Shown here: positions 24,198 through 43,614 of the stretch, one piece after another
How positions within the stretch are numbered: position 1 is the first letter of the stretch
Layout of the letters: each line of letters begins with the position of its first letter
Origin: Chitinophaga pinensis
Lineage (GTDB): Bacteria > Bacteroidota > Bacteroidia > SXHM01
Length of the DNA: 47,431 bases
NCBI GenBank assembly: GCA_945889235.1
Contig: CAMDBK010000003.1
Span: 1 to 47,431, forward strand
Reading direction: 5' to 3'
The notes under the pieces: model-generated
Database searches by the model: none
What the model was told of the DNA's origin: nothing
The model's input: the letters and a program-made list of their open reading frames with translations, nothing else
Translations under genes and position numbers: made by a program

Positions 24198-24221
24198 GTC
24201 ACTTCGAGCGTAGTCGAGAAG
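24198..24221 (+). repeat. REP-like element GTCACTTCGAGCGTAGTCGAGAAG
   Basis: Shares the 12-bp core GAGCGTAGTCGA and a 5' GT(C/T)AC with the minus-strand copy at 36283-36304; follows a small hairpin after the fadJ stop. Confidence 0.65.
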
Positions 24222-24252
24222 TTTTAATCCCAGAGAGTGGCAGAAAAAAATT

Positions 24253-24287
24253 ACCACTAAGGCACAAAGAACACAAAGATGCACTAA
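24253..24287 (+). repeat. Short degenerate CAC(T/A)AAG tandem element
   Basis: ACCACTAAGGCACAAAGAACACAAAGATGCACTAA, period about 8-10 nt, upstream of the PorP/SprF gene. Confidence 0.6.
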
Positions 24288-24297
24288 TAAGAAAAAA

Positions 24298-25179
24298 ATG
24301 AAAAAACTCTTCACCACTTTTTTTCTTGTTTCTTTATTTTCGGTTGGCTATGCCCAACAAGATCCGCAGTTCAGCATGTATTTCAATAACCAGCTATTCT
24401 TTAATCCTGCTGCTGCCGGTGCTGAATACAATACTCAAATTGTTGGGCAGTTCAGAAAACAATGGACCGGTTTTGATGGTGCACCAACTACTGGGTCTCT
24501 AACGGGTGACCATTATTTTAAAAAGATACGAAGTTCATTCGGGCTCATAGGAATGTATGATGAAATTGGTTTTCAGAAAACAGGAAAAGCATTGTTGGTA
24601 TACGCATACCGCATTCCTATTAAGAAAACTTTCTTGCAAATTGGTGTTGACTTTGGAACAATGACCCAAACTATGGATGGCAACTTTGTTCCCATTCAGC
24701 CGGGCGACCCTAGTATTCCAACAGGAAGTTCTACGGACACAAAATTTATTTTTTCAAGTGGTCTTTATTTCTGGTCTAAACGTTTCAGTGCAGGTTTTTC
24801 TGCAAGAAATTTAAATGGTCCTAAATTAAAACTCGATAACCTGAATGGAGAACCTCTTACTATTGCACGCCACTATTATTTATACCTGCAATACCGTCAA
24901 CCTTTAGGTGAAGATTTTACACTTCGCCCTACTTTCCTTGTCAAGAGTGATGCTGCTTCTACACAATTAGATGCATCGCTGCTTTTCTATTATTTAGATT
25001 GGTGCTACCTTGGCGCATCCTACAGAATTGATGACGCTATAGTATTAACCACAGGAGGAAAAGCAGGAATAATTTGGCTGCAATATGCCTATGACATTAC
25101 TACTTCAAAACTTAGCGGGTACAGCAATGGTAGCCATGAAATTATGATACGGTATACTATTCCATACAAAAAAGATTAA
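24298..25179 (+). CDS. PorP/SprF-family type IX secretion system membrane protein
   Basis: Signal peptide, AQQDPQFSMYFNNQLFFNPAAAG, RKQWTGFDGAPTT, YAYRI, GASYR, YAYDITTSKL..YSNGSHEI. Confidence 0.92.
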   Translation: MKKLFTTFFLVSLFSVGYAQQDPQFSMYFNNQLFFNPAAAGAEYNTQIVGQFRKQWTGFDGAPTTGSLTGDHYFKKIRSSFGLIGMYDEIGFQKTGKALLVYAYRIPIKKTFLQIGVDFGTMTQTMDGNFVPIQPGDPSIPTGSSTDTKFIFSSGLYFWSKRFSAGFSARNLNGPKLKLDNLNGEPLTIARHYYLYLQYRQPLGEDFTLRPTFLVKSDAASTQLDASLLFYYLDWCYLGASYRIDDAIVLTTGGKAGIIWLQYAYDITTSKLSGYSNGSHEIMIRYTIPYKKD

Positions 25180-25183
25180 TTCA

Positions 25184-25540
25184 TCACCTCTTCCCAATCA
25201 CCTCCCAATACCTATCCCTCTCCTTCTTCACCTCTTCGAGTTCTTTTTTCAGGCTTTCAATTTCGTTCAATAGTTTTTGTTCTTTTTGGGTGGGTTTTAT
25301 AATGGGGTTGGCATCCAACAGAAGCAGATACGGTTCAAACAGGTTTACACCCAGCCAGCCGCTCAACTCAATAAGCAGTGAGGGGCGAATATCATTGCTT
25401 TTCAGGTTTTGCTGAAGGTAGTTTTCGCCTTGTCCCATCAGTTTACTAAGTTTGCGTAGCGACCTGCCGTTATATTTTACCCAACCTTTAATAATAGCAT
25501 GCATCTGAGGCAATTCCTTTTTTCGTTTTTTGAGTTTCAT
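25184..25540 (-). CDS. Putative XRE/Cro-like HTH regulator with C-terminal coiled coil
   Basis: SLRKLSKLMGQGENYLQQNL..NDIRPSLLIELSGWLGVNLF; EIESLKKELEEVKKERDRY heptads. Confidence 0.6.
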   Translation of the reverse strand: MKLKKRKKELPQMHAIIKGWVKYNGRSLRKLSKLMGQGENYLQQNLKSNDIRPSLLIELSGWLGVNLFEPYLLLLDANPIIKPTQKEQKLLNEIESLKKELEEVKKERDRYWEVIGKR

Positions 25541-25578
25541 TGGCTTACATATGGGTTTATTTAAATAATTTCACATAT

Positions 25579-25692
25579 ATGAACTATAAATTAAGTCAGA
25601 CACACGCAAAATTAAGTCACTTACATGATATATACAATCATATACACGGAAAACTAAGTCGCATACTTGAGAAATTACAACACTTGTTGTAG
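25579..25692 (+). CDS. Unlisted 37-aa His-rich heptad-repeat peptide MNYKLSQTHAKLSHLHDIYNHIHGKLSRILEKLQHLL
   Basis: ATG 25579 to TAG 25692; 21-nt DNA periodicity (AAATTAAGTCA at 25588 and 25609, AAACTAAGTC at 25651) matches in-frame heptads. Confidence 0.45.
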   Translation: MNYKLSQTHAKLSHLHDIYNHIHGKLSRILEKLQHLL

Positions 25693-25817
25693 AATTTGTA
25701 TCGCATGCATGAGAAATAGCGTCACCCACAAGAGAAATGCGTTCGCTGATTAAAGTGCCGGATAGCAGTAAAGAGCGGATTGAATTTTTATTCGAAGTAG
25801 TACAACCGACATTTATT

Positions 25818-25825
25818 TATTTTTG
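25818..25825 (+). promoter_or_regulatory. Bacteroidota -7 element TATTTTTG
   Basis: Exact TAnnTTTG, 23 nt before the ATG at 25849. Confidence 0.5.
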
Positions 25826-25848
25826 TCCCATAACCTAAAAACAAATCC

Positions 25849-26496
25849 ATGAGTAAAAAAACAACCTTCCTTATTCTCTGCTTAATAGCAACCACCAACC
25901 TCTTTGCCCAAAAAGTATTTGAAGGGCATATCAGTTATTCGTTTCAGATATTGGGTGAAAATTCTGAAATGGCGGCAGGCATGATGCCCACTTCCATGGA
26001 ATTTTATTCAAACAAAAAAAATACACTGGTAAAAATGGAAGGCGGACTTTTGGCAACCATGATGGGTGATATGCTTGCTACCTCTAAAGAATCATACCAG
26101 ATTAAGCATGAAGAAAAAATAGCTTATGTGATTAAAAAAACAGAACCTGCCAAAAACGATGGTGCAAAAGTGGTAAAGGAAGATGAGGTAATAACCTTAC
26201 AAGGACTTAGCTGCCAGAAATACAAGGTAACCAAAACAGATGACAAGGGCGAGCAACTGGTTTACATCTGGATTAGTACTGATTACATACTTCCCTTAAC
26301 AGGCGGTAAAGGAACCGAAAACCTTTCTGTTCCCGGAGTACCCGGAATGGCCATGAAAATTATGTCGAGCCAAATGGGGCTTACTGTTGTTATTACAGCT
26401 ACTGAAATGCAACAGACAAAGCAGGACAAAAAATATTTCAGCGTACCTAAAGGCTATGCAAAGAAAGATTTTGTACCCGGAGAAATGGGCATGTAA
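25849..26496 (+). CDS. Secreted DUF4412/GLPGLI-like protein
   Basis: Signal peptide, FEGHISY, EDEVITLQGLSCQKYKV, YIWIS, GVPGMAMKI, FSVPKGY. Confidence 0.7.
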   Translation: MSKKTTFLILCLIATTNLFAQKVFEGHISYSFQILGENSEMAAGMMPTSMEFYSNKKNTLVKMEGGLLATMMGDMLATSKESYQIKHEEKIAYVIKKTEPAKNDGAKVVKEDEVITLQGLSCQKYKVTKTDDKGEQLVYIWISTDYILPLTGGKGTENLSVPGVPGMAMKIMSSQMGLTVVITATEMQQTKQDKKYFSVPKGYAKKDFVPGEMGM

Positions 26497-26518
26497 TTGG
26501 TAAATTAACCTGTATTTT

Positions 26519-26526
26519 TACCTTTG
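26519..26526 (+). promoter_or_regulatory. Bacteroidota -7 element TACCTTTG for hpt-adk-obgE
   Basis: Exact consensus, 18 nt before the hpt ATG. Confidence 0.65.
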
Positions 26527-26544
26527 CTACCCCTTTAGCAAAAA

Positions 26545-27096
26545 ATGCAGGAAACAATTACAAAAACGGTTCAGCTTCACGACAAGAAATTTGCGCCTCA
26601 TATAAGTGCCACAGAAATTGAAAAAGCAGTTGTCCGTGTAGCTACAAAAATCAATACCGACCTTGCGGGAAAAAATCCCTTGTTTGTTTGTGTACTCAAT
26701 GGCGTTTTTCTTTTTGCCGCTGATTTGCTCCGCAAAATTGAAACCCCTTGCGAAATAAGTTTTGTTAAAGTTTCGTCTTATGAAGGAACTGCATCTTCAG
26801 GAGAAGTAAAAACCCAGATTGGTTTAAAAGAAGATATAAAAGGTAGAACCATAGTATTGGTAGAAGATATTATTGACAGCGGAAACACCATTGCCAAACT
26901 ATTGCCGATACTTGAAAGTCAGCAGCCGGCAGCAATTAAAATTGCAACACTGCTCTTTAAACCATCTGCTTTTAAAAGAGATTTTAAAATTGATTACATC
27001 GGGCTGGAAATTCCGAATGATTTTGTAGTAGGCTACGGATTAGACTACAACGGATTGGGACGTAACTTGCCCGAAATTTATAAGATAACTGAATAA
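26545..27096 (+). CDS. hpt: Hypoxanthine phosphoribosyltransferase
   Basis: VLNG..F.ADL, VSSYEGT.SSG, LVEDIIDSGNT, FVVGYGLDY. Confidence 0.96.
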   Translation: MQETITKTVQLHDKKFAPHISATEIEKAVVRVATKINTDLAGKNPLFVCVLNGVFLFAADLLRKIETPCEISFVKVSSYEGTASSGEVKTQIGLKEDIKGRTIVLVEDIIDSGNTIAKLLPILESQQPAAIKIATLLFKPSAFKRDFKIDYIGLEIPNDFVVGYGLDYNGLGRNLPEIYKITE

Positions 27097-27130
27097 TGAA
27101 TATCGAACAAGGAATGATGAATAATGAAGT
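27091..27130 (+). repeat. Short direct-repeat element GAATAATGAA-TATCGAACAAGGAATGAT-GAATAATGAA
   Basis: 10-bp direct repeat at 27091 and 27119, in the hpt-adk junction. Confidence 0.5.
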
Positions 27131-27174
27131 ATTGTCTGCATTTCTAAATTAGATATTTTTCAAATTTATATACC

Positions 27175-27744
27175 ATGCTTAACCTCGTTTTATTTGGTCC
27201 TCCGGGTGCAGGAAAAGGAACACAAAGTGAAAAACTGATTGCCAACTATCAATTGGTACATCTCTCAACAGGCTATATTCTGCGCAATGAAATTAAAAAC
27301 CAAACCGCACTTGGACTAGAAGCCAAAAAATTAATGGATGACGGAATTCTTGTTCCCGATGAAGTGGTTATAGGAATGATTGGCAACAAACTGGAAGAAA
27401 ATAAAAACGCGAAAGGATTTATTTTTGATGGGTTTCCGCGCACTACTGCACAAGCCGAAGCGTTAGATAAACTGCTTGCCGGAAAAAACACAGCGGTTAC
27501 CATGATGCTGGCGCTGGAAGTTGACAACGAAGAACTGACCAAACGTTTATTGCTTCGCGGAAAAGATTCAGGTCGCGCTGATGACAGTAATGAAAGCATT
27601 ATCCGTAACCGCATTAACGAATACAATAACAAAACAGCACCCCTTAAAAGCTATTACACTGCACAAGGAAAATTCCACGCAGTGAATGGTATTGGTAGCG
27701 TTGATGAGATTTTTACCGCGCTGTGTAAGTTGATTGATAAATAA
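27175..27744 (+). CDS. adk: Adenylate kinase (short-LID type), with STGY in place of the conserved STGD
   Basis: GPPGAGKGTQ, GILVPDEVV, IFDGFPRT..QA, RGK.SGRADD. Confidence 0.95.
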   Translation: MLNLVLFGPPGAGKGTQSEKLIANYQLVHLSTGYILRNEIKNQTALGLEAKKLMDDGILVPDEVVIGMIGNKLEENKNAKGFIFDGFPRTTAQAEALDKLLAGKNTAVTMMLALEVDNEELTKRLLLRGKDSGRADDSNESIIRNRINEYNNKTAPLKSYYTAQGKFHAVNGIGSVDEIFTALCKLIDK

Positions 27745-27748
27745 ATTG

Positions 27749-27820
27749 TCTCGCAAAGCCGCAAAGAGCGCAAAGCGAAAAATTGTGCAGAAACTTTGCG
27801 ACCTTTGCGCCTCTGCGAGA
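27749..27820. repeat. Imperfect inverted repeat with (CGCAAAG)n and (CTTTGCG)n arms
   Basis: TCTCGCAAAGCCGCAAAGAGCGCAAAG ... CTTTGCGACCTTTGCGCCTCTGCGAGA; 27-nt arms with an 18-nt loop, filling the adk-obgE gap. Confidence 0.8.
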
Positions 27821-27830
27821 AACCTAACCT

Positions 27831-28832
27831 ATGTCTGAATCTAATTTTGTTGATTATGTAAAAATCTGTTGCCGCTCGGGCGCAGGCGGACCGGGCTCAC
27901 GGCATTTCCACCGCGATAAGCAAAATGCCAAAGGCGGTCCCGATGGCGGTGATGGCGGACGGGGCGGACATATTATTCTGAAAGGCAGCAGTCAGGTTTG
28001 GACTCTTATTCACTTAAAATTTCGCAAACACGTAATTGCCGGTCCGGGTGAAAGTGGCGGTAGCTCACGCAAAACAGGTGCTGAAGGAAAAGACGAGGTA
28101 TTGGAAGTTCCGCTGGGAACCATTATAAAAGATGCCGAAACCGGTGAAGTAGAATTTGAAATAACACAAGAGGGAGAAGAAAAAGTATTGCTTGCCGGTG
28201 GGCGTGGCGGCTTGGGAAACGACCATTTTAAAACATCCACCAATCAGGCGCCTAAATATGCACAGCCCGGTGAAGATGGACAAGAGGTCTGGAAAATTCT
28301 GGAGTTAAAAATACTTGCCGATGTAGGTTTGGTGGGTTTCCCTAATGCCGGAAAATCTACGTTGCTATCGGTGGTTTCAGCTGCAAAACCTGAGATTGCG
28401 AATTACCCGTTTACCACATTGGTTCCCAATCTGGGCATTGTAAAATACCGCGATTACAAAAGTTTTGTAATGGCAGATATTCCCGGAATTATTGAAGGCG
28501 CGCACGAAGGCAAAGGACTTGGAATGCGCTTTCTGCGGCACATTGAGCGTAATTCTATTTTGTTGTTCATGGTTCCTGCCGACACGGGCGACATTGCAAA
28601 AGAGTATAAAATTCTGCTGAATGAATTGAAAGAATACAATCCTGAATTGCTGCATAAAAAACGTTTGCTCGCTATTTCAAAATGCGATTTGTTAGATGAT
28701 GAACTGGAAACAGAATTGAAAAAAGAAGTAAAAAAATCTGTGAAAGGAATTGAAATTCTTTTCATATCATCGCATACCGAAAAAGGAATTCTGAAGTTGA
28801 AAGATGCCATCTGGAAAAGTATAAACGGATGA
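27831..28832 (+). CDS. obgE: GTPase ObgE/CgtA
   Basis: [59 protein letters not shown]. Confidence 0.97.
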
Positions 28833-28841
28833 AAAATGTTA

Positions 28842-28901
28842 GCCACGAATTACACTAATTGAAACTAATTAATTTGTGATAAATTTGTGAAAATTAGTGG
28901 C
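28842..28901. repeat. Imperfect inverted repeat with CAC(G/T)AATT-type arms
   Basis: GCCACGAATTACACTAATT ... AATTTGTGAAAATTAGTGGC in the obgE-ispD gap. Confidence 0.75.
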
Positions 28902-28909
28902 AAAATAAA

Positions 28910-29593
28910 ATGAAACGATACGCGATAATAGTAGCAGGTGGTTCAGGAACACGGATGCATTCTTCTGTTCCCAAACAATTTTTGCCGCTTGCCGGAAAAC
29001 CTGTTTTGTTCTATTCATTAGAGGCGTTCTATAATTTTGATAACGATGTTGAAATCATCCTCGCCCTTCCGGCAGATTCATTTTCAGATTGGGAAAAACT
29101 ATGTTCAGATTATAATTTCAATATTGCTCACAAAGTTGTTACAGGTGGCGAAACCCGTTTTCAGTCCGTACAAAACGGACTTCAATCAGTAAGCGAGAAA
29201 GGAATTGTTGCCGTGCATGATGCAGCCCGTCCGTTGGTTTCGGTTGAAACAATTGCCCGCAGTTTTGAAGCGTCAGAGAAATTTGGTGCTGCTGTTCCTT
29301 TTATTCCTTTGAATGACTCTATACGTTTTTACAACGGGCACGAAAGCCGCTCATTAGACCGCAACAAACATGTATTGGTTCAAACGCCCCAATGTTTCCG
29401 TTCCGATGTGTTAATTTCTGCTTACCAAACTGAGTTTCAACCCTTTTTTACCGATGATGCCAGCGTTGTTGAATCAGCAGGTTTTACTGTTCATCTGGTA
29501 GATGGAAACGCTGAAAACATCAAAATCACTACTCCTTCAGACTTTATTATAGCCGAAACCCTTGCCAAATCTGTTAAATCAAAAGTGTTTTAA
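28910..29593 (+). CDS. ispD: 2-C-methyl-D-erythritol 4-phosphate cytidylyltransferase
   Basis: AGGSGTRM..PKQF, GGETRFQSVQNGL, VHDAARPLV, VQTPQCF, FTDDASVVE, NIKITTPSD. Confidence 0.96.
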   Translation: MKRYAIIVAGGSGTRMHSSVPKQFLPLAGKPVLFYSLEAFYNFDNDVEIILALPADSFSDWEKLCSDYNFNIAHKVVTGGETRFQSVQNGLQSVSEKGIVAVHDAARPLVSVETIARSFEASEKFGAAVPFIPLNDSIRFYNGHESRSLDRNKHVLVQTPQCFRSDVLISAYQTEFQPFFTDDASVVESAGFTVHLVDGNAENIKITTPSDFIIAETLAKSVKSKVF

Positions 29594-29711
29594 ACATTGG
29601 CATGTTGAGAATAACCTTTTAGGTTTAATTGCGTTTTAAGTTGCGTTGTTTTATACTTGCAGCCTTCAAATGCAATATTTAAGACAAAATAACGTTAACA
29701 TAATAAAAGCC

Positions 29712-30731
29712 ATGCGTAATTTCATAGCACCTGTTATTGTTGTTTTACTTATTCTTCTGCTTCCCGGAAGAATGCCCGGCATGGGCTATGGCAACGGCAT
29801 TATTTCCAGTGATACCACGGGTGTTCTGCGCACAAAAAAGAGCAATGAGTATGTACTTGCCATTGACACTTCACTTGGCTACAACGAAAAATATATGCGT
29901 AGTGCTTTAATTTATGACATGAACACCAATACGGTGGTTTGGGAAAAGCAGATGAAAACGCAGGTACCTATTGCCTCACTTACAAAAATGATGGTAGCAC
30001 TTCTTACCATTGAAGATATAAAAGCCGGTATTATTGACTGGAAAACTCCTGTAACTGTTACCAAAGAAGCAAGTCTTGTAATGGACTCGCGGGTTTTTTT
30101 GAAAGAAGGAGCGGTTCTTACTGTCGAAGAACTTTTTGAAGCTTCGATGATACGGTCAGCTAATGATGCAGCCTATCTTTTGGCTCAATGGGGTTGCGGC
30201 ACTGAAGAATATTTTGTTCAACGTATGAACGAAAAAGCAAAGGAACTCGGAATGAAAAACACCCATTACTGGAATTCAAATGGCTTACCCGGAAAAATGT
30301 TTGGCACAAAAGACAATTACTCAACAGCCGAAGATTTATTGATACTTGCCCGCGAAGCCCTCAAACATCCTGAATATATTGAGATAGCCAGCCGCGAAAA
30401 AGAAACGCTTAACAATGGCTATAATCAACTTGAATATGAAAACCGCAACAAACTTGTTAAATATTACAAAGATGAAATTGACGGGTTGAAAACGGGATAC
30501 ACCAAAAATGCAAAAACCTGTATTGTTGCTACTTCAAAGCGTTGTGACCACCGCGTCATTTCTATTATTTTGGGTGTTGAAAGTTCTACCACACGCAACG
30601 ATATTGCAGTAAACCTCTTCAATAATTATTACAAAAGCATCGGCCTCGGTGTTTTGGGACAAGACCTTGAACCCCCTGTCGCAAATGAACAGGAATGCAT
30701 TGAAGAAACGAACGAGAACGGTTCGAATTAA
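29712..30731 (+). CDS. D-alanyl-D-alanine carboxypeptidase, peptidase S11 (low-MW PBP)
   Basis: SxxK (ASLTK), SxN (SAN), KTG (GLKTGYT). The signal peptide starts at M23 of the track ORF, so ATG 29712 is preferred over TTG 29646. Confidence 0.9.
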   Translation: MRNFIAPVIVVLLILLLPGRMPGMGYGNGIISSDTTGVLRTKKSNEYVLAIDTSLGYNEKYMRSALIYDMNTNTVVWEKQMKTQVPIASLTKMMVALLTIEDIKAGIIDWKTPVTVTKEASLVMDSRVFLKEGAVLTVEELFEASMIRSANDAAYLLAQWGCGTEEYFVQRMNEKAKELGMKNTHYWNSNGLPGKMFGTKDNYSTAEDLLILAREALKHPEYIEIASREKETLNNGYNQLEYENRNKLVKYYKDEIDGLKTGYTKNAKTCIVATSKRCDHRVISIILGVESSTTRNDIAVNLFNNYYKSIGLGVLGQDLEPPVANEQECIEETNENGSN

Positions 30732-30781
30732 TTTTTTTGATTTCGTTACCCTTGTATAATTTAAGGGCTTTATTCTGACAA

Positions 30782-32956
30782 ATGACCATTCGCAAGTTTG
30801 CAGACCTTTTTTTCTCCGGTGTAATCAACAGTTATTCGCAGATATTTTTCAGCAATAACAAATGGTTTGCATTGCTGTTGATTATTACTTCTTTCATTGA
30901 CCCGTATGCAGGTCTGGGTGGAATTGTCGCGGTGGTAGTCAGCAATCTGTTTGCTTATTATATCGGCCTAAGTCCTGATAATATCCGGAACGGAGTGTAT
31001 GGCTTTAACTCAGCCATGATAGGAATGGTGCTGGGTGTTTATTTCAAACTCAGCGCTGAATCAATTTTGATTTTATGCATGGCTTCGCTGTTCACGTTAT
31101 TGTTAACAGTTGCATTCCTTGCATGGGCTTCAAAGTATGGAGTGCCGTTTATGAGCTTTCCTTTTCTCATTTGTATCTGGACGGTGTTACTTACTACACG
31201 CACCTACTCATCACTTGAATTAAGCGAGCGCGGAATTTATACCATTAATGAACTCTGGTTTCTTGGCGGTGAAAATCTTGTGGGGTTTTACAACTTCCTG
31301 AATGATCCGCCAATTCCGCAATACATGGATGTATACCTGAAATCACTGGGAGCAATTTTCTTCCAATACAACCTGATTGCAGGAGTTTTAATTTTTGTCG
31401 GCATGTTGATTTTCTCACGCATTTCGTTGGTGCTTTCCATTGTCGGTTTTGCAACAGGCTATGCATATTACAAAATTACCGGAGCAGATTTTACACAGCT
31501 GCAATACAGTTATATCGGCTTTAATTTTATTCTTTCTGCCATTGCGTTGGGTGGTTTTTTTCTCATCCCTTCACCGCGTTCTTTTCTGGCGGTATTGCTT
31601 TCCATTCCTTTGATTGCATTGTTGATTGGAGCTTGTGCATATGTTTTAGGAATGTATCAGTTACCAACGTATTCATTGCCCTTTAACATAATTGTGATGT
31701 TAGTTTTGTATGTGTTGCAATTGCGTTATGTAAACTACGGACCATACCTTGTGCAGGAACAATTTTTTTCTCCCGAAAAAAATCTTTACAGTTTTTTATA
31801 TCGAAAAGAACGCTATTACAATCAAACGTATTATCACATTCATCTTCCGTTTTTTGGTGAATGGAAAGTCTCTCAGGGACATAGTGGAAATATTACCCAC
31901 AAAGGCGATTGGAAAGAAGCATGGGATTTTGTGGTAACAGATGAACACGATAAAACCTGGCGTTCACCGGGAACAAATGTGACGGATTTTTATTGCTACA
32001 ATCTTCCGGTTCTTGCTCCGCAAGCGGGTTATGTAATTAAAGTTGAGGACAACGTAGATGATAACACAATTGGCGGTGTTGACCTTGAACACAATTGGGG
32101 AAACACCATTATCATCAAGCACGGTGAAGACCTTTACAGCAAATTGAGCCACATAAAAAAAGGCAGTTATAAAGTAAAGGAAGGTGATTATGTGCATAAA
32201 GGTGATGTACTGGCAACCTGCGGAAACAGTGGTCGTTCACCAGAGCCACATATTCATTTTCAATTGCAGGTAACACCATTTGTTGCATCAAAAACGATTA
32301 AATATCCAATTAGTTATTACGTTAGCAAAAAGAAAGATGCGTATGATTTTCACTCATTTGATTATCCGAAAGAAGGTGAATTGATTTCGCGTGTAGCAGG
32401 AACAAAACTATTGAAAGACGCATTTTATTTTATCCCTGGAAAAAGTATTTCATGGAATTTTGAAGGTGAAGCTTTTGAGTGGGAAATTTTTACGAACGCT
32501 TATAACCAGGCTTATATTTATTGTCGGAAAACCAATTCTGTAGCCTATTTCGTGAACAATGACACGCTGCATTACTTCACCGAATTTTATGGTGACAAAA
32601 AATCATTGCTCTATTATTTTTACCTCGGTGCGCACAAAATTTTGCTGGGCTATTATCAGAATATGGAAGTGAATGATTTGCTTCCTGTGGAAGGTTTTTA
32701 TTCAGGTCCTGCAAAATTCTTTCAGGATTTTATTGCACCGTTTTACATTTTCCTGAAGACAAACTATGTTTCGCGCTTTGTTTCGGTTGATGATGTAAAT
32801 TATCCGCAGCAGATTAAACTAAGTTCGGTTGCCGAAGTCAGAGCATACGGAATGGAGAACAGGAAAATTGAGTTTGACTTGACGCTGAGCGTAAATAAAA
32901 TTTCATCATTCACCATTACCGAGAAAGGAAAGAAAAGGGAAGCGGTATGCGATTGA
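30782..32956 (+). CDS. Urea-transporter-family membrane domain fused to an M23 metallopeptidase domain and an unknown C-terminal domain
   Basis: SYSQIFF, GVYGFNS, GFNFILSAIALG, PFMSFPF/PTYSLPF repeats; then THKG...AWDF, WGNTIIIKH, SKLSH, CGNSGRSPEPHIHFQ. Confidence 0.85.
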   Translation: MTIRKFADLFFSGVINSYSQIFFSNNKWFALLLIITSFIDPYAGLGGIVAVVVSNLFAYYIGLSPDNIRNGVYGFNSAMIGMVLGVYFKLSAESILILCMASLFTLLLTVAFLAWASKYGVPFMSFPFLICIWTVLLTTRTYSSLELSERGIYTINELWFLGGENLVGFYNFLNDPPIPQYMDVYLKSLGAIFFQYNLIAGVLIFVGMLIFSRISLVLSIVGFATGYAYYKITGADFTQLQYSYIGFNFILSAIALGGFFLIPSPRSFLAVLLSIPLIALLIGACAYVLGMYQLPTYSLPFNIIVMLVLYVLQLRYVNYGPYLVQEQFFSPEKNLYSFLYRKERYYNQTYYHIHLPFFGEWKVSQGHSGNITHKGDWKEAWDFVVTDEHDKTWRSPGTNVTDFYCYNLPVLAPQAGYVIKVEDNVDDNTIGGVDLEHNWGNTIIIKHGEDLYSKLSHIKKGSYKVKEGDYVHKGDVLATCGNSGRSPEPHIHFQLQVTPFVASKTIKYPISYYVSKKKDAYDFHSFDYPKEGELISRVAGTKLLKDAFYFIPGKSISWNFEGEAFEWEIFTNAYNQAYIYCRKTNSVAYFVNNDTLHYFTEFYGDKKSLLYYFYLGAHKILLGYYQNMEVNDLLPVEGFYSGPAKFFQDFIAPFYIFLKTNYVSRFVSVDDVNYPQQIKLSSVAEVRAYGMENRKIEFDLTLSVNKISSFTITEKGKKREAVCD

Positions 32957-34811: not shown

Positions 34812-34818
34812 TAATCTC

Positions 34819-34874
34819 GTCATGCTGAACTTGTTTCAGCATCTAAAATGACTCCGAAACAAGTTCGGAGTGAC
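34819..34874. repeat. Paired inverted REP-like hairpins (BIME-like) between convergent genes
   Basis: GTCATGCTGAACTTGTTTCAGCAT and, on the reverse strand, GTCACTCCGAACTTGTTTCGGAGT; each is a hairpin with a CTTGT loop and 5' GTCA. Confidence 0.75.
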
Positions 34875-34877
34875 GTT

Positions 34878-35819: not shown

Positions 35820-35913
35820 CAGTATTCAAAAGTACCCTGATCATATAAACGGAAATCAGAATGATTTCTTATTTTTTCACAAACACATGTTAATCGGTTT
35901 GCCTTTAAGAATT

Positions 35914-35955
35914 TCTCTGCGTCCACTGCGGGCTGCTCTCTGCGAACTCTGCGGT
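35914..35955 (-). repeat. (CGCAGAG)n single-arm element downstream of the DUF4286 gene
   Basis: Minus strand ACCGCAGAGTTCGCAGAGAGCAGCCCGCAGTGGACGCAGAGA. Confidence 0.65.
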
Positions 35956-35964
35956 AAGATTTAA

Positions 35965-36264
35965 TTACACCACCTCCATCAGCGAGCGGAACGCGACAAA
36001 TTTATCGCTGTATTTATCCGCCACTTCTTTCTGCAATGCAGGTGCATGAAGGCTTTGATACTCTTCATAGTCAGCCATGTTTTTCAACGTGTATTGAATG
36101 GTATAACTTGTTCCGGTTTCTTCTTCCACCATCAAACGGCACATGCGGTGTTCAAGAAAATAGCCCGTTGCCATTACTCTCGGAATGTGTTCATTTTTCA
36201 TCCATTCTACCCATTCCAGGTGAACATCGTCTTCAATATTTATGGTTACGTTGTAAATAATCAT
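35965..36264 (-). CDS. DUF4286 family protein
   Basis: MIIYNVT..I, W..WMK..HIP, TSYTIQY, LQKEV..KY.DKFVAFRSLMEVV. Confidence 0.85.
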   Translation of the reverse strand: MIIYNVTINIEDDVHLEWVEWMKNEHIPRVMATGYFLEHRMCRLMVEEETGTSYTIQYTLKNMADYEEYQSLHAPALQKEVADKYSDKFVAFRSLMEVV

Positions 36265-36282
36265 GAGTTCAATTTTGAGTAC

Positions 36283-36304
36283 CTTCGACTACGCTCAGGG
36301 TAAC
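36283..36304 (-). repeat. REP-like element GTTACCCTGAGCGTAGTCGAAG
   Basis: Second copy of the GAGCGTAGTCGA core (see 24198-24221). Confidence 0.65.
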
Positions 36305-36309
36305 AGTTC

Positions 36310-38157
36310 TTAATTAATTTTATCACCACGCAATGCACGGTAACGCACGCGGGCTTCAACAGTATAAAGGCTTCCCGGAAATTTCAGTAATAAATCCTGG
36401 TAGAGTTCCATTGCTTTTTCTTTGTTGTTCAAACGGTTTTCAAAAATGTTGGCAAGCATGTAAAGCGCATCGTCTGCAAGTATGTCGTAAAAATAATCAT
36501 CCACAATTTTTTGCAGGTTGCTTACTGCTTCTTCAACATGTTGTTTCTTCAGAAACACCTGTGCTTTTTTGTAGAGCACATCATCCGTTAATGAATGACC
36601 GGGAAACTGTGTTTCAATTGAATCCAATGTTGCCAGTGCAATAGAATCTTTGTTTTGGAAATACAATAAATCAGCGCGGGCAAACATTTGCAAAGGAACT
36701 GTGTTTGTATCAATAACAATATTATCCGAAATCAGCAAAGCCAGATACAGTGCATCGTTGGCAATGAGCTGCGAAGTAGCAGATTTCAGAACATCTAACT
36801 GCGCCTGCGCCCAATCAAACTGCCCGATGTAGAACGAAAGTTTTGCGTTTTTCAGTTTTGCTTCCTGCCCCAGCTCATCGTTCTTAAACATTTTATCTAC
36901 TTGCGAATACAGTAAAGTTGCTTCCCAAACTTCGTTGGTAAACAATAACACATCACCCATTTCTAATTTACAATATGCCAGTTCTTTTTGTCGTATACCC
37001 GGCAGTTCCATACATTGCTGCAAGATCTTTACAGACTCTTCACTTTTATGCTGATAAAAAGTCAGGTGATGCGCTAATCCACGCATTAATCCTACAGTTT
37101 CTTCGTAGCTGCCAAGTTCATCTAAGGTAGAACGATAAAGGGCTTCCAGTTCATCCAGATCGGCTTGTATATAATCTCCTTTTTCGGTAATTTTTTTGTT
37201 CATCACATTCACCAATTCCATTTTTGCAGTGGTGTAGAAATAATTTTCCGCACCTTTTTTTATCACATATTGCAGACACTTGATAGCAGTTTCGTATTCT
37301 TTATTGGCGTTGCAGATATTGGAAAGTTCAATCAATCGTGAACCGTCTTCTTTCAGTTTTTTATCCAGTGCGCGCGCCTGAATAAACGCACCTTCAAAAT
37401 TATTCTGCTGAATATAATGCCATACCAGAAGTTGCGCGAACATCTTGTTGTCAGGGTTTTCCTGCACTTTTTGGATGAGCGCAGTTTCAAGGTATTCTTT
37501 CTTTTTATTGTTCACATCATCTGTGAGTGCAGTCTGTATGGCGTTCTCCACTTTTTCCTGATAAGCTTCATTGAACAACAACGCATCCATATATTCATTG
37601 AACATGGCCGGAGTATCTTTTTTGTATGAATAAACTTCTGCCAGTTCAAAGTTGAATGGATAAATTCCGGTAAATAATTTTCGGCCGCGCAAATAAGTTT
37701 TTATGGCAAAATCATATTCCTGTTTTGCAATAAACATATTTGCTAAATCAGTAATCATTTGTTGATCGGGCTGCAAATATTTTATTGCGTTGTTATATTG
37801 TTTCTCTGCTTCATCGCGCTTGCCCGAAATGTTGTAAATGTTTCCTAAGTCAACGAGGTAGTGGAAATTCTCAGGTTCTTTTTTCAGCAATTTTTTTACG
37901 GTTTCTTCTGCCTGCGGATAATCTTCAAGCGCAATTAAGCAGTTCAGGTAATACGTGTAATGTATTTCGCTTTTACTTTTTTTGAAAAGCTTTTCATAGA
38001 GTTCAGCAGCCTTTGCGTATTCATGATCTTCGAAATATTGTGCTGCTAATTGTTCGTCCTGGGTTTGAGCAAAAGAAGAAAAAGAAATCACAACACAGAG
38101 AAGCACAGAGAATACACAGAGTTTCACAGAGAAAAAATTATAATTTTTTTTACTCAT
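36310..38157 (-). CDS. Secreted tetratricopeptide-repeat protein
   Basis: Signal peptide ending SSFAQ; many TPR units (EQLAAQYF..HEYAKA, LELGD/EMGDVLL, NDALYL, ARVRYRALRGD). Confidence 0.85.
   Translation of the reverse strand: MSKKNYNFFSVKLCVFSVLLCVVISFSSFAQTQDEQLAAQYFEDHEYAKAAELYEKLFKKSKSEIHYTYYLNCLIALEDYPQAEETVKKLLKKEPENFHYLVDLGNIYNISGKRDEAEKQYNNAIKYLQPDQQMITDLANMFIAKQEYDFAIKTYLRGRKLFTGIYPFNFELAEVYSYKKDTPAMFNEYMDALLFNEAYQEKVENAIQTALTDDVNNKKKEYLETALIQKVQENPDNKMFAQLLVWHYIQQNNFEGAFIQARALDKKLKEDGSRLIELSNICNANKEYETAIKCLQYVIKKGAENYFYTTAKMELVNVMNKKITEKGDYIQADLDELEALYRSTLDELGSYEETVGLMRGLAHHLTFYQHKSEESVKILQQCMELPGIRQKELAYCKLEMGDVLLFTNEVWEATLLYSQVDKMFKNDELGQEAKLKNAKLSFYIGQFDWAQAQLDVLKSATSQLIANDALYLALLISDNIVIDTNTVPLQMFARADLLYFQNKDSIALATLDSIETQFPGHSLTDDVLYKKAQVFLKKQHVEEAVSNLQKIVDDYFYDILADDALYMLANIFENRLNNKEKAMELYQDLLLKFPGSLYTVEARVRYRALRGDKIN
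38089..38132 (-). repeat. (CTCTGTG)x4 element inside the signal-peptide coding region of the TPR gene
   Basis: CACAGAG on + at 38094, 38104, 38115 and 38125; encodes FSVKLCVFSVLLCVV. Confidence 0.8.
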
Positions 38158-38716
38158 TGTTTTTCAGTTTCATTATCACCGAATCAACTTCGGGTGCATA
38201 GTGTTGAACAAGCTCTGCCTGTTGTCGCGCAAAATTTGTTTTGGCAGCAACTGCCTCATTTAATATCTGTAAATTTTTTTCTTCGCGGGTAACAAATACT
38301 TTGATGCTGTCCAACGGTTGTGCCTGTTTTGTGAAATCTACTTTCAGTTTATTTACTTGTTCTGCCGCCAGACTCACCTGTTGTTTTATCGTTGAAAAAT
38401 CATTGACAAAACCTTCCAGCGTTTTTGCTGCACGTGCGTAGTTATCAATTACCAATGCAGTTTCACGGCTCATTGTATCTTTGAAATTGAAGTTGATAAA
38501 TTCCACATTCTGTTTTGCTTCAACACATAAATTTTTCCAACTTTCTGTTTCAACTCCTGTTATTTCTGCTTCTGCTTCCCACGCATTAAGTGCTAATGAA
38601 TCTAACGTCTGTTCGGTTGGTTTAGTATCGGGTTTGCAGGAATTCAGCAATAAATTTCCGACAAGAAGAGTAAAAATAAATTTACCGCAAAGACGCAAAG
38701 GCGCTAAGTTTTTCAT
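38150..38716 (-). CDS. Lipoprotein, predicted coiled-coil/helical, function unknown
   Basis: Lipobox LLLNSC; heptad-rich body; TAATG coupling to serS. Confidence 0.7.
   Translation of the reverse strand: MKNLAPLRLCGKFIFTLLVGNLLLNSCKPDTKPTEQTLDSLALNAWEAEAEITGVETESWKNLCVEAKQNVEFINFNFKDTMSRETALVIDNYARAAKTLEGFVNDFSTIKQQVSLAAEQVNKLKVDFTKQAQPLDSIKVFVTREEKNLQILNEAVAAKTNFARQQAELVQHYAPEVDSVIMKLKNNE
38684..38708 (-). repeat. (CTTTGCG)n arm inside the lipoprotein signal peptide
   Basis: Minus strand CTTAGCGCCTTTGCGTCTTTGCGGT, encoding LAPLRLCG; same core as the right arm at 27794-27820. Confidence 0.75.
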
Positions 38717-39987: not shown

Positions 39988-40009
39988 TTGGTCTGAAAAA
40001 TTTAGTCTG

Positions 40010-40017
40010 CAAAGATA
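40010..40017 (-). promoter_or_regulatory. Bacteroidota -7 element TATCTTTG for serS
   Basis: Exact consensus, 22 nt upstream of the serS ATG. Confidence 0.65.
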
Positions 40018-40060
40018 GTATTAAACGTATTTGGCTTGCGATTTGCTAATTTAGTGGCGC

Positions 40061-40855
40061 ATGAAAAGAGTTGCCGTTTTATTTCTTGTCTGGAATTTAC
40101 TTGTTTCTTTTGGCTACACGCAGCCATACAGAATTATTGAAAACACTTCGTTTCAGAAAGGCGAGAAACTCACATTCCGTATTCACTATGGATGGATAGA
40201 TGCAGGTGAAGCTACCATGGAAGTGGTAAATAAAGAATTGTATCACAATGGAAGAAAAGTGCATCACATCATTGGTAAAGGATACACCACCGGCTCATTT
40301 GATTACTTCTTTAAAATTCGCGATACTTACGAAACCTATTTAGATGAGCAATCACTTATTCCCTGGGTTTTTGAGCGCAATGTGGATGAAGGCGGTTATT
40401 TTATCAGGCACAAACAGATATTTAATCATCGTGCCAAAAAAGTGATTGTTACTGACTATGTAAATAAATCTGTAAAAACGTTTGATGTTCCAATTAATAT
40501 TCAGGACCTCGTTTCGGCCTATTACTATGCCCGTTGTCTTAATTACGATACCATAAAAGTAGGCGACACAGTTTCGGTAATCACTTTTTTTGACAGCGAA
40601 ATTTTTCCACTGAAAGTGAAATTTTCAGGAAGAGAAACCATACACACTACTTTCGGAAAAATACCTTGTTTGAAGTTTCATCCTATGCTGCAAACAGGCA
40701 GAGTTTTTACCGAGCAGGAAGATATGTCGGTTTGGTTCAGTGATGACGGCAACCATATTCCTGTTAGGATGGAAGCGCAGATTGTTGTGGGCTCTGTAAA
40801 AGCAGATTTAAAGGGCTATCAGGGTTTGAAGTACCCTCTCGGAAATAAGAATTAA
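40061..40855 (+). CDS. DUF3108 family secreted protein
   Basis: Signal peptide, FQKGEKLTFRIHYG, FFKIRDTYE, QDLVSAYYYAR, GRVF...SVWFSDDGNHIPVR, VGSVKADL. Confidence 0.85.
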   Translation: MKRVAVLFLVWNLLVSFGYTQPYRIIENTSFQKGEKLTFRIHYGWIDAGEATMEVVNKELYHNGRKVHHIIGKGYTTGSFDYFFKIRDTYETYLDEQSLIPWVFERNVDEGGYFIRHKQIFNHRAKKVIVTDYVNKSVKTFDVPINIQDLVSAYYYARCLNYDTIKVGDTVSVITFFDSEIFPLKVKFSGRETIHTTFGKIPCLKFHPMLQTGRVFTEQEDMSVWFSDDGNHIPVRMEAQIVVGSVKADLKGYQGLKYPLGNKN

Positions 40856-40934
40856 CACCCCCATGTTTACAGTTTATACTCCGCGGTAAAATATCCCCTT
40901 TCTTTTTGCTCTAATTTTCCCACAAAATCAGAAC

Positions 40935-41942
40935 ATGAAGTTACGACCTGAATTTGTTGAGCGGGTAAATAAACTGGAAGAAAAGTATGCAGTTATTGGG
41001 CAGGACATGAATTCCTACCTTGATGGTTTGTTGTATTCCAACGTTACTAACTATTGGGATTATATTAATGTAGACACGTTGCTTTCGTTGCAGCATCCAA
41101 AAACTGATTATCCCGATGAATTGATTTTCATCATGTACCATCAGGTTACGGAATTGTATTTCAGGTTGGCGCTGCATGAGCTGGAGCAAATTGCAAATAA
41201 CGGTCGAGATTTGGTGATGGAAACAGGTGAAGATAAAGGCTGGAATAAAAAATTAGACGTTAACTATTTTGCTGAACGTGTAACCCGCATCAACAATTAT
41301 TTTGAGGCACTTACCAAGTCCTTTGACATTATGGGAAGCGGAATGGAGAAGCAGCAGTTTCTGCGTTTCCGCATGGCGCTGTTGCCGGCAAGCGGTTTTC
41401 AGTCAGCACAATACCGCATGATAGAAATCTGCGCTACCGATTTTATCCGTTTGGTAGATAAAGACGAGCGCAAAAAATTTGAAGGGAAGAAAGCGTCAAT
41501 AGAAAAAATGTTTGAAAACATCTACTGGAAAAAAGGCGCAACTGAACTTGAAACAGGGCAAAAAACACTGACCTTAAAACATTTTGAAAAAAAATATTCT
41601 GCTAAACTGATTGCACTGGCAAACGATTACAAAGGCAAAAACCTGTGGGCGAAATACAAATCACTTAACAAAGCAGACCAAAAAAACAGTCAACTTATTA
41701 CCGCACTCAAACAATTAGATGTGAATGTAAATGTAAACTGGCCATTGGTGCATTACCGCTCCGCAGCAAAGTATTTAGAAAAAGGCAAGAACGAAGATAT
41801 TGCAGCAACTGGTGGAACCAACTGGCAGAAATATCTTCCTCCACGTTTTCAAAAGAGGATGTTTTATCCTGAACTTTGGAGCGAACAAGAAAAAAATAAC
41901 TGGGGAAAATCCTGGGTTGAATCAGTAGTCAATAAAAAATAA
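40935..41942 (+). CDS. kynA: Tryptophan 2,3-dioxygenase family protein
   Basis: YWDYI..DTLLSLQ, DELIFIMYHQVTEL, FR..L.PASGFQS.QYR.IE, LVH, ATGGT. Confidence 0.85.
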   Translation: MKLRPEFVERVNKLEEKYAVIGQDMNSYLDGLLYSNVTNYWDYINVDTLLSLQHPKTDYPDELIFIMYHQVTELYFRLALHELEQIANNGRDLVMETGEDKGWNKKLDVNYFAERVTRINNYFEALTKSFDIMGSGMEKQQFLRFRMALLPASGFQSAQYRMIEICATDFIRLVDKDERKKFEGKKASIEKMFENIYWKKGATELETGQKTLTLKHFEKKYSAKLIALANDYKGKNLWAKYKSLNKADQKNSQLITALKQLDVNVNVNWPLVHYRSAAKYLEKGKNEDIAATGGTNWQKYLPPRFQKRMFYPELWSEQEKNNWGKSWVESVVNKK

Positions 41943-41946
41943 CAGC

Positions 41947-43614
41947 ATGAAAAAAATCCTATTCTTTTTAATTATCAATTATCAATTATCAATTATCAAT
42001 TCCTTTGCACAATCCTATCAGGTAAATGGAAATGCATCACAATTAAGTTGCAACTGTTACAGACTTACTCCTGATTTAAATACGCAGGGCGGTTCGGTAT
42101 GGAACGTAAATCAAATAAGTTTAGTTGATTCATTTGATTTTACTTTTGATGTATTCCTCGGCTACAATGATGGCGGTGCAGATGGAATTGCTTTTGTGCT
42201 TCAACCGGTAAGCACCAGCATCGGCTCCAATGGCGGTGGTTTAGGATATCTGGGAATTACACCTTCAGTGGCGATAGAAATTGACACCTACATGAACGGA
42301 AATTACGGTGACCCGATTTACGACCATATTGGAATACAATCCAATGGTGATGTAGACCACAACGGAATAAATAATCTTGCCGGTCCCACGTCTGCACTTA
42401 CAAGTACCGGAAATATTGAAGACGGACAAAATCATTTGCTCCGCGTAAAATGGAATGCAGGAACACAAACACTTGAAGCGTATTTTGACGGAGTGTTGCG
42501 CGTTACCTACACCGGAAATATTGTAGCGAATATTTTTAGTAACAATCCAAACGTATATTGGGGTTTTACAGGAAGTACAGGTGGTTCAATTAACGAACAG
42601 CGTTTTTGTTTGTCCATAGTTCCTGATTTTTCCACCAATGTTGCCACCCTTTGCCAGGGTGAAACGCTTCAGCTGACTGACAGTTCATACAGCGGATTAG
42701 GAAGCATTGCTTCATGGAGTTGGGATTTCGGAAACGGAACAGCATCTACGGATACAAATCCTTCTGTAGTTTATAACAGCGCAGGAACTTTTCAGATTGT
42801 GCAAACCGTAGTTGACCAGGCGGGCTGCAGCGATTCAAATACTACAACTATCACCGTTCTTCCTTTACCCGATGTTGGTTTTACAGTTGACAATAATTGT
42901 TCGGGCAATCCTATTCTGTTCACGGATACCACACTTATTCCAAGCGGAACACTTAGTACATGGAACTGGAGTTTTGGCGATGGCGAAAGTTCAACCGACC
43001 AGAATCCAATTCATAATTATGCAACGGATGCAACTTATATTGTAAGCCTCACCGTTGTATCAACAGATGGATGTTCTTCAACCCAAAATAGTAATGTGGT
43101 AATTAATCCTTCGCCAACTGCATCGGCTGATATGCAAACTTCATTGCTTACTGTAAATTTCACCAACACAAGCACTGGTGCTGAAAGTTATGAATGGATT
43201 TTTCCTGATACAACACTAACAACTACCAGCCCATCCTACACTTTTCCCGATACCGGACATTATCCTGTAATCCTTGTTGCAACAAGCGCAAACGGCTGCA
43301 CTGATACAATTGTTTTTGATGTTTATGTTGACAACACAATACTGATTGAAGTGCCTAATGTATTTACTCCCAATGGAGATTTATCAAACGATGTATGGAT
43401 ACCAACTTTAAAAGGAGTTGAAAAAGCGGAAGGAAGAATTTTTAACCGCTGGGGAATGCTGATGGCTGAAATTACTGAAACTGCAAATACTTGGGACGGT
43501 AAAACAAAAGGTGGAAATGATGCTCCGGATGGAACGTACTTTTATATTCTTCAATATTCAACCATTGACGGAAATTCAGATAAGAAAAAAGGAACGATAA
43601 CCGTTTTGCGTTAA
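41947..43614 (+). CDS. T9SS type B (gliding-motility-associated CTD) protein with L-type lectin domain and about three PKD domains
   Basis: YRLTPD..QGGSVW, GADGIAFVLQP, AIEIDTY, WGFTGSTGG; WSWDFGNG/WNWSFGDG PKD motifs; VPNVFTPNGD..ND, IFNRWG, WDG, DGTYFY tail. Confidence 0.9.
   Translation: MKKILFFLIINYQLSIINSFAQSYQVNGNASQLSCNCYRLTPDLNTQGGSVWNVNQISLVDSFDFTFDVFLGYNDGGADGIAFVLQPVSTSIGSNGGGLGYLGITPSVAIEIDTYMNGNYGDPIYDHIGIQSNGDVDHNGINNLAGPTSALTSTGNIEDGQNHLLRVKWNAGTQTLEAYFDGVLRVTYTGNIVANIFSNNPNVYWGFTGSTGGSINEQRFCLSIVPDFSTNVATLCQGETLQLTDSSYSGLGSIASWSWDFGNGTASTDTNPSVVYNSAGTFQIVQTVVDQAGCSDSNTTTITVLPLPDVGFTVDNNCSGNPILFTDTTLIPSGTLSTWNWSFGDGESSTDQNPIHNYATDATYIVSLTVVSTDGCSSTQNSNVVINPSPTASADMQTSLLTVNFTNTSTGAESYEWIFPDTTLTTTSPSYTFPDTGHYPVILVATSANGCTDTIVFDVYVDNTILIEVPNVFTPNGDLSNDVWIPTLKGVEKAEGRIFNRWGMLMAEITETANTWDGKTKGGNDAPDGTYFYILQYSTIDGNSDKKKGTITVLR
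41970..42001 (+). repeat. Heptanucleotide tandem repeat (AATTATC)4-AATT inside the signal peptide
   Basis: Four perfect units from 41970 plus a partial unit; encodes IINYQLSIIN. Confidence 0.9.

Follow-up and report, generated by a model that had tools for sequence, protein, structure and literature searches.

The 47,431-nt stretch of Chitinophaga pinensis DNA analysed here (the window; positions 1 to 47,431 of contig CAMDBK010000003.1, assembly GCA_945889235.1) carries, between positions 24198 and 42001, a set of short phased repeats. They probably derive from small selfish cassettes, as hairpins without a gene and as remnants with a single arm, and their cores are possible sites for the cassettes' own nuclease. 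A complete cassette would consist of a left arm, a gene of ~125 codons and a right arm. Arms made of the 7-nt unit CRCNRAK (CGCAAAG, CACAAAG, CGCAGAG, CACAGAG, CACGAAT/CACTAAT) would be the ends of cassettes with a GxxExxY gene (TIGR04256 / PF13366), and the element GAATAATGAA would be the end of a cassette with a four-helix-bundle gene (PF05635, the Avd / 23S intervening sequence (IVS) protein family). The original prediction, made from the letters of the window, had taken the repeats for the footprints of an insertion/excision system whose vacated sites are the hairpins.

The repeat observation was confirmed as real. We analysed the whole assembly (2.98 Mb, 340 contigs, 38.7% G+C, 79% complete), of which the window is contig C3. 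Homologues of the encoded proteins point to an uncultured member of the Bacteroidota. Successive CRCNRAK matches on the same strand peaked at spacings of 8, 9 and 10 nt (61, 71 and 44 on the forward strand; 71, 74 and 48 on the reverse), compared with ~8 per spacing elsewhere. Phased pairs (8-10 nt) numbered 176, ~7-fold above background, as against 15-36 in sequences simulated by a second-order Markov model. None of the six individual 7-mers was enriched singly across the genome; thus, the signal lies in the phasing. Clustering of the matches yielded 204 loci, among them 55 hairpins (median length 56 nt) with the purine array 5' and its complement 3' on either strand, versus at most one in the opposite order. 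This fixed order of the arms gives the elements an outside and an inside. Another 44 loci were solo arms with three units or more. Forty-five of the 55 hairpins were entirely intergenic, leaving 5-20 nt on each side to the flanking genes. In the 17.8-kb region (20 genes, 19 junctions) at least five elements were found, with 0.59 expected (P = 4e-4). All seven predicted elements were present at their coordinates. The accompanying statement that most gene junctions are occupied was too strong: elements of this class occupy 7 of the 19 junctions, and unrelated hairpins of the CGTC-type repetitive extragenic palindromic (REP) kind a further three.

The arms are tied to two gene families. This genome contains four PF05635 genes (four-helix-bundle, TIGR02436; contigs C136, C232, C25 and C75) and two PF13366 genes (GxxExxY, TIGR04256; contigs C83 and C234), and all six are flanked by inverted tandem-unit arms, which bears out a link that the original prediction had drawn from recall. 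The C83 arms consist of CGCAAAG, as in the window hairpin at 27749-27820, whereas those of C234 are of the CCACGGAG type and complementary at 36 of 36 positions. At C83 and C25 the layout is left arm-right arm-gene-second right arm. Across seven same-genus genomes, inverted arms were found at 17 of 24 GxxExxY loci and at ~24 of 27 usable four-helix-bundle loci. Each cargo family has its own class of arm unit: CRCNRAK arrays stood on both sides of 29 of 52 GxxExxY loci and 0 of 30 four-helix-bundle loci, and in 2 of 3000 random segments of 350 nt (Fisher p = 3e-8). Four-helix-bundle arms are built of other units (CAAAGTT, GGAAGTT, GTTATGA, ATAGAAA, GGTAATT, TGTCGAA). The GAATAATGAA element at 27091-27130 is present as predicted but belongs to this second arm class and not to the CRCNRAK family; its motif is common to the four-helix-bundle cassettes C136, whose arms share ATCGAACAAGG with it, and L136. 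Each unit type in the window has a cognate among the GxxExxY cassettes of the genus: GCCACGAATT (CACGAAT) in L109, CACAAAG in L095, CGCAGAG in L097 and L110, and CGCAAAG in L098 and L107. Gene-less and solo copies outnumber genes by ~50 to 1.

The association extends well beyond the genus. GxxExxY homologues form at least 8000 clusters, and of 121 genomes sampled from the class, 78 encode PF13366, with 1-18 copies per genome. Scanning named genomes yielded 80 GxxExxY loci (78 usable) with proteins 52-70% identical to the C83 copy, from Bacteroidota, Acidobacteriota, Planctomycetota, Verrucomicrobiota, Cyanobacteria (Nostoc), Desulfobacterota, Ignavibacteria, Chloroflexota and others. Inverted arms were found at 63 of the 78, nearly all of the (C)TCACGCAAAGGCGCAAAGACGCAAAG kind (CGCAAAG/CGCAGAG), and CGCAAAG arms accompany the protein in at least eight phyla. 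The commonest layout is left arm, gene, right arm, with the arms ~26 nt ahead of the ATG and ~22 nt past the stop. The persistence of a non-coding 7-mer across phyla, next to a protein that has itself diverged by 30-48%, argues for constraint on the cores. When placed on a tree of 60 GxxExxY proteins, the four unit classes require 8 changes, compared to a mean of 20.4 upon shuffling (0 of 200 as low), and units ending in GAT or AAT are used by one deep, well-supported clade. Unit class thus follows the protein tree, which is compatible with recognition of the units by the protein but no proof of it.

The arms were also compared unit by unit, the left arm against the reverse complement of the right. 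In gene-less hairpins the cores agreed at 87-100%, the central N position at 50% and the spacers at 40-70%, and in gene-carrying cassettes the N position agreed at 69% and the spacers at 55-79%; this contrast is partly inflated by the pattern-based detection. Core agreement together with divergence at N and in the spacers suggests that the arms are inverted repeats by descent that drift outside the cores.

The same comparison bears on an explanation at the level of RNA. As in the 23S rRNA IVS, the arms would pair in the transcript and RNase III would cut the stem, releasing the cargo mRNA and rendering the insertion harmless, while gene-less hairpins would serve as processing or stability sites. 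The layout indeed resembles that of IVS elements that bear an open reading frame (ORF) and are excised by RNase III (PMC4990558), and PF05635 is the IVS protein family (PMC10053308, PMC11270868). Moreover, the elements lie within operons, 5-20 nt off the flanking genes, and the hairpin at 27749-27820 is highly stable as RNA (-32.6 kcal/mol, z = -4.4, for 27745-27825). Against this, mismatched pairs on the sense strand at tandem junctions comprised 39 G.U and 40 A.C, so that G.U wobble is not in excess and host transcripts give no indication of a selected RNA stem. The central unit position pairs in just 50-69% of cases, and the hairpin at 28842 is weak (-12.9 kcal/mol, z = -2.9, for 28838-28906). 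Solo arms persist partnerless, with no folding of the window's solo arms found by fold calculation, and divergent junctions hold hairpins in proportion to background. We therefore consider an RNA-level explanation unlikely, although it could coexist with selfish cassettes.

The cassette interpretation is carried further by orthologous sites, where arms and gene are gained and lost jointly at short gene spacers. Five same-genus genomes (G001, G003, G004, G005 and G007; Obg protein 92-95% identical) are collinear with window positions 25840-30734, and all three element-bearing junctions of this segment vary among them. Note that hpt, adk, obg and ispD are named from reading and synteny alone. 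The hpt-adk junction is a spacer of 10-12 nt in G003, G004 and G005 and contains a full hairpin in G001 and G007, while the window copy lacks 28 nt of the right arm. Between adk and obg, a CGCAAAG hairpin is found in the window and G003, a decayed CACAAAG-type hairpin in G004, and an unrelated CGTC-REP-type element in G001, G005 and G007. At obg-ispD, the window has a CACGAAT hairpin, and G001 and G007 a CGCAGAT/GCGGATT array; the genes overlap (ATGA) in G004 and G005 and are 18 nt apart in G003. The presence/absence polymorphism that had been anticipated is thus found at three window junctions, and also at a lipoprotein start (see below) and for five gene-carrying cassettes. The original prediction had suggested looking for a small gene at orthologous junctions in relatives; none was present at the window's junctions in the five genomes.

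The cassette flanks were searched in seven same-genus genomes. Each of the five gene-carrying cassettes is absent from most of these, with the flanks adjoining; the C232 cassette is common only to G002 and the C136 cassette only to G001. The C83 junction is occupied by a MazF/PemK-like pair (read by eye) in G003 and by a solo AATCTGTG arm in G007. Conversely, sites of relatives' cassettes in this genome are clean and empty at C77:692 (a TAATG stop/start overlap), C2:52475, C245:3694 and C99:4278, retain solo-arm remnants at C99:1481-1543 and C9:8449-8541, or contain a CGTC-type REP dimer or a different hairpin. At the C77 site the filled form reads cttcaTGGTTGCTCGCAAAG...CTTTGCGAGAAATttataacc, versus cttca joined directly to ttacaatc in the empty form. 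Overall, orthologous empty sites are mostly short spacers or stop/start overlaps (ATGA, TAATG) with no recognisable arm, indicating that the arms come in with the element. Insertions of the elements lie at gene boundaries and show turnover among members of the genus.

Solo arms arise by decay, through loss of the partner arm. This is illustrated by the deletion at hpt-adk, and by the C234 site, at which only a decayed right arm remains in G001 and G006 (G004 has a solo CGCAAAG array there). The earlier view of the half-sites as leftovers therefore holds. The C234 locus also reveals how arms change. Orthologous GxxExxY genes are present in this genome and G003, with gene and flanks diverged to a similar degree. 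The arms read CCACGGAG GCACGGAG GGCACTTAG ATACACGGAG on both sides in this genome, with CACGGAG in three of four units, and CCACTAAG ACACTAAG TTCACTAAG AAACACTAAG (CACTAAG) in G003. Independent drift cannot have produced the same replacement of TA by GG in three units of each arm. A similar switch, from CTCTGTG x4 to CTCTGCG x3, is seen in the 5' array of a tetratricopeptide repeat (TPR) gene in G006.

The state of the empty sites also decides largely against hairpins as docking sites, that is, pre-existing recombination sites (compare integron attC/attI) for cassette insertion and excision, with an empty hairpin as a vacated site. The layout at C83 and C25 looks as if a gene and one arm had been joined onto a hairpin, and the same junctions are repeatedly taken by different small elements. 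However, the empty orthologues of the five cassettes and of the window hairpins are mostly armless, including stop/start overlaps, and at no junction did we find a gene in one genome and a same-armed gene-less hairpin in another. Nor is there an integrase-like gene in the region (the rest of the genome was not searched for one). We regard this explanation as quite unlikely; the hairpins are better described as gene-less copies than as the empty sites that the original prediction proposed.

Several further observations concern individual cassette sites. The locus L078 (G003:C9:48218-49778), orthologous to C83:5545-6100, contains a 577-nt insert with two small ORFs, similar in size to a GxxExxY cassette; one ORF reads MNKGDIVLVPFPFTDLSGNKNRPALI... 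and is MazF/PemK-like by eye. The C83/L078 spacer seems to attract different small selfish genes. At C161:4187-5481, a 357-amino acid (aa) gene, by eye a fatty-acid desaturase, is enclosed by inverted arms of 33 nt (GATAGAACGCTGATTATTAAGATCATTATGATT), of the kind found at the GxxExxY cassette L090 (G002), and may be an ordinary gene captured between two arms. The CGTC-type REP hairpins (GTCATGCTGAACTTGTTTCAGCATC, GCTGTCACTTCGAGCGTAGTCGAGAAG and relatives), often inverted dimers, form a second, unrelated family, with window copies at 24181-24230, 34815-34877 and 36265-36309. Their dimers also occur in this genome at junctions where relatives carry a cargo cassette (C113, C143, C185, C183 and C10).

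It is very improbable that the elements are regulatory or structural sites of the host (intrinsic terminators or attenuators, for example, or arrays bound by a host protein). Their intergenic position and helical phasing would suit such a role, as would the solo arms at or just before gene starts, where, in gene sense, TTTG-containing pyrimidine arms outnumber purine arms (20 versus 8, genome-wide). This excess also fits a tolerance of T-rich codons in hydrophobic leaders; eight solo arms in the genome sit within N-terminal coding sequence, and start-proximal arms could mislead start-codon calling or provide hydrophobic leader sequence. In contrast, even within one genus orthologous junctions do not share the elements consistently, and the same arms accompany one small gene in eight phyla. 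The hairpins occupy 37 tandem, 7 divergent and 6 convergent junctions (background 1623/357/349), and this match indicates no concentration at gene 3' ends. The stems of the window hairpins are not followed by a T-run, and Rfam at gathering thresholds returned zero matches over the entire window. An intrinsic terminator function was rejected on the lack of T-runs and the background-like junction types, divergent ones included.

Mobilisation of the elements as REPs or REP doublets forming hairpins (REPINs) by a REP-associated tyrosine transposase (RAYT, an IS200-like Y1 transposase) is extremely improbable: the elements are, like REPs, extragenic palindromes, and a RAYT-like protein (identified by eye) is encoded at C160 1256-1681 between palindromes, but this gene has its own, different REP, its palindrome GCCACGCCCTTCAGGGCGTGG being unrelated to the tandem-unit arms, and the cargo between such arms is always GxxExxY or four-helix-bundle, never a Y1 transposase. 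The C160 locus (1193-1761) encodes a 141-aa protein (MPFTKIIIHAVWATKDR...HLHCLL; an IS200-type (RAYT) transposase by eye) flanked by a perfect 27-nt inverted repeat, AGTTGCCACGCCCTTCAGGGCGTGGAT, and represents a third, separate palindrome system in this genome.

Having weighed these alternatives, we return to the selfish cassettes and their proposed nuclease. In an alignment of 34 GxxExxY homologues, G24, E27, Y30, E31, D67, E77 and K79 are invariant; judged by sequence, these residues represent the GxxExxY motif and a classical D...ExK nuclease motif. The ~125-residue protein is predicted to have a PD-(D/E)XK nuclease fold. The AlphaFold2 (AF2) model has a mean confidence (pLDDT) of 90.6, and its best fold matches in the PDB are PD-(D/E)XK nucleases (Cas4 SSO0001, alkaline and lambda exonucleases, Bax1 and the R2 endonuclease domain), at weak scores (best E ~1e-3, template modelling (TM) score 0.4-0.5). 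A sequence search of the PDB with the protein gave no match.

Binding or cleavage of the phased cores by the cassette's own nuclease appears the most likely role for them. Each arm would be a terminal inverted repeat with three helically phased 7-bp binding/cleavage sites. The nuclease would mobilise full cassettes and, in trans, gene-less hairpins, much as an autonomous element does with miniature inverted-repeat transposable elements (MITEs). Identical unit changes in both arms might reflect gene conversion among the units, or else their co-adaptation to the protein.

Several points weigh against this interpretation, in addition to the effect of pattern-based detection noted above. Movement of the elements is inferred. 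Four-helix-bundle cassettes have the same layout without a nuclease, and co-inheritance alone can account for the clustering of unit types on the protein tree. By the strict two-sided definition, CRCNRAK arms were present at 29 of the 52 GxxExxY loci, and flanking inverted arms were missing from 7 of 24 loci in the genus and 15 of 78 across phyla. No hairpin pair in the genome exceeds 93% identity, so that recent copying is not indicated. No consistent target-site duplication or target motif emerged from four filled/empty pairs: possible duplications are ATGAA at obg-ispD and TTAAA at C232, with none at C77, and the flanks are ~20% diverged. Finally, several unit classes that occur as hairpins (CACTAAT, CACAGAT) lack a cognate gene in this genome, which is 79% complete; cognate cassettes do exist in the genus (L109, L096, L112).

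A more far-reaching proposal, which we offer tentatively and consider doubtful, is that the GxxExxY cassette, at ~450 bp, moves autonomously and is smaller than all insertion sequences known. Its 125-residue protein would read six helically phased 7-bp sites, with contacts at C1, C3 and A6 and none at the central base, cut the arms, and drive excision, insertion or homing of the cassette itself and of ~50-fold more gene-less hairpins, its specificity co-evolving with the units (CACTAAG to CACGGAG). If true, the same logic with a four-helix-bundle reader would cover 23S rRNA intervening sequences and cyanobacterial heptamer repeats.

Among known systems, the IVS of 23S rRNA (Coxiella burnetii helix 45, Leptospira; S23p = PF05635; PMC4990558, PMC11270868) is similar in being a small selfish insert with complementary ends around one small ORF. 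In Coxiella it is a 428-nt selfish element with the S23p ORF (PMC4990558). The ORF belongs to the family of the four-helix-bundle cargo described here, PF05635, which is described as a functionally uncharacterised, Avd-like IVS protein (PMC10053308, PMC11270868); IVS versions without an ORF also exist. Complementary ends around a PF05635 ORF are found at C136, C232, C25 and C75 but not in the window's gene-less copy at 27091. Unlike the IVS, which occupies helix 25 or 45 of 23S rRNA, all copies studied here lie between or inside protein-coding genes. The ends are arrays of phased short units, and the commoner cargo is an unrelated protein of nuclease fold.

The elements resemble REP/REPIN-RAYT systems and bacterial interspersed mosaic elements (BIMEs) as short extragenic palindromes in tens to hundreds of copies without clear target-site duplication. 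As in REP/REPIN-RAYT, one protein gene is flanked by the same repeats, with far more gene-less copies. However, the associated protein is PD-(D/E)XK and not of the HUH/Y1 fold, and where a REP is one palindrome tagged with GTAG or CGTC, an arm comprises three 7-nt cores in phase, separated by free spacers. MITEs and their autonomous transposons likewise combine numerous short palindromes lacking a gene with a few copies that carry one. The elements differ from them in having no DDE transposase and in their multi-unit ends, and the filled and empty sites compared showed no consistent target-site duplication. Like Rickettsia palindromic elements, some copies are in frame within genes. The short tandemly repeated repetitive (STRR) heptamers were reportedly first described in filamentous cyanobacteria by Mazel et al. 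in 1990. They are intergenic, form hairpins and have no known function (PMC2670836). The elements studied here are likewise intergenic tandem arrays of short units able to form hairpins, and Nostoc GxxExxY genes carry CGCAAAG arms (L181, L192). In contrast to STRR, which are contiguous 7-bp repeats described without a cargo gene, CRCNRAK recurs every 8-11 nt with spacers.

In the literature we found no account of nuclease cassettes with phased-unit arms, and none of the three papers in which a full-text search found 'GxxExxY' deals with its flanks. Both GxxExxY (TIGR04256) and the four-helix-bundle / 23S-IVS proteins form very large orphan families. The tie between arms and genes makes it directly testable whether the protein of either family binds or cuts its own arms. 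The tie to gene-less hairpins accounts for a type of intergenic repeat that is common in Bacteroidota and in seven or more other phyla. For genome annotation, arms flag junctions with fast turnover between species and produce false N-terminal extensions, at times real signal-peptide sequence.

The individual elements are listed in Table 1. Genes of the region include PorP/SprF, hpt, adk, obg, ispD, a D-Ala-D-Ala carboxypeptidase, a LysM muramidase, DUF4286, a TPR protein, a lipoprotein and serS. As had been noted before, no transposase or nuclease gene is among them, nor is a GxxExxY gene found between arms at 24198-42001; all copies there are gene-less or one-armed. The arm at 24253 lies 74 nt downstream of the preceding gene's stop and 9 nt ahead of the PorP/SprF start. 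The outer unit of the hairpin at 28842 is identical to the arm of the GxxExxY cassette L109 (G002). Of the units in the arm at 35914, the strict pattern calls just two.

Table 1. Arm and hairpin elements in the region 24198-42001 (window coordinates)
Element	Position	Strand	Remark
Solo purine arm, four units CACTAAG, CACAAAG, CACAAAG, CACTAAT	24253..24287	+	From sequence and cluster detection
Left arm and loop of four-helix-bundle-type hairpin, AATATCGAACAAGGAATGATGAATAATGAAG	27091..27150	+	Right arm: ~28 nt deleted
Complete gene-less hairpin, CGCAAAG x3 / CTTTGCG x3	27749..27820	.	Fills adk-obg spacer
Complete, mismatched gene-less hairpin, GCCACGAATT/CACTAATT type	28842..28901	.	In obg-ispD spacer
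Solo purine arm CGCAGAG, CGCAGAG, CGCAGTG, CGCAGAG (minus-strand reading)	35914..35955	-	Directly past stop of DUF4286 gene
Solo pyrimidine arm, CTCTGTG x4 (gene sense)	38089..38132	-	Within signal-peptide coding of TPR protein starting at 38157
Solo pyrimidine arm, CTTAGCG CCTTTGCG TCTTTGCGG (gene sense)	38684..38708	-	Codons 4-11 of lipoprotein starting at 38716

Two of the window's solo arms now code for part of signal peptides. The original prediction had placed right arms at gene starts at 38089-38132 and 38684-38708; both arms are present, but within the signal-peptide coding sequence of minus-strand genes and not in spacers. The first is translated in frame within the signal peptide of the TPR protein (FFSVKLCVFSVLLCVV...SFAQTQD). 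Its array is kept in frame in four of six genus members (including G003, G001 and G007), is replaced in G006 by the CTCTGCG units described above, and is decayed in G005; the cleavage motif (F/I)AQ(T/A)QD is conserved in all six genomes compared. The second arm falls within 21 extra in-frame nt of the lipoprotein signal peptide that are confined to this genome. Five same-genus genomes have ATGAGATTTGCTGCTGCA... at this position, and the serS-lipoprotein TAATG overlap is retained.

Two features of the window are separate from the repeats. A 300-nt A+T-rich spacer (25541-25848), upstream of an unassigned minus-strand ORF of 118 aa (25184-25540), contains three copies of AAAWTAAGTCR (aaattaagtca, aaattaagtca, aaactaagtcg) ~27-35 nt apart, which may be an operator or iteron array. 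At 30782-32956, a 724-aa ORF shows an unusual fusion of a urea-transporter domain (PF03253, residues 14-311) with an M23 peptidase domain (residues 407-497).

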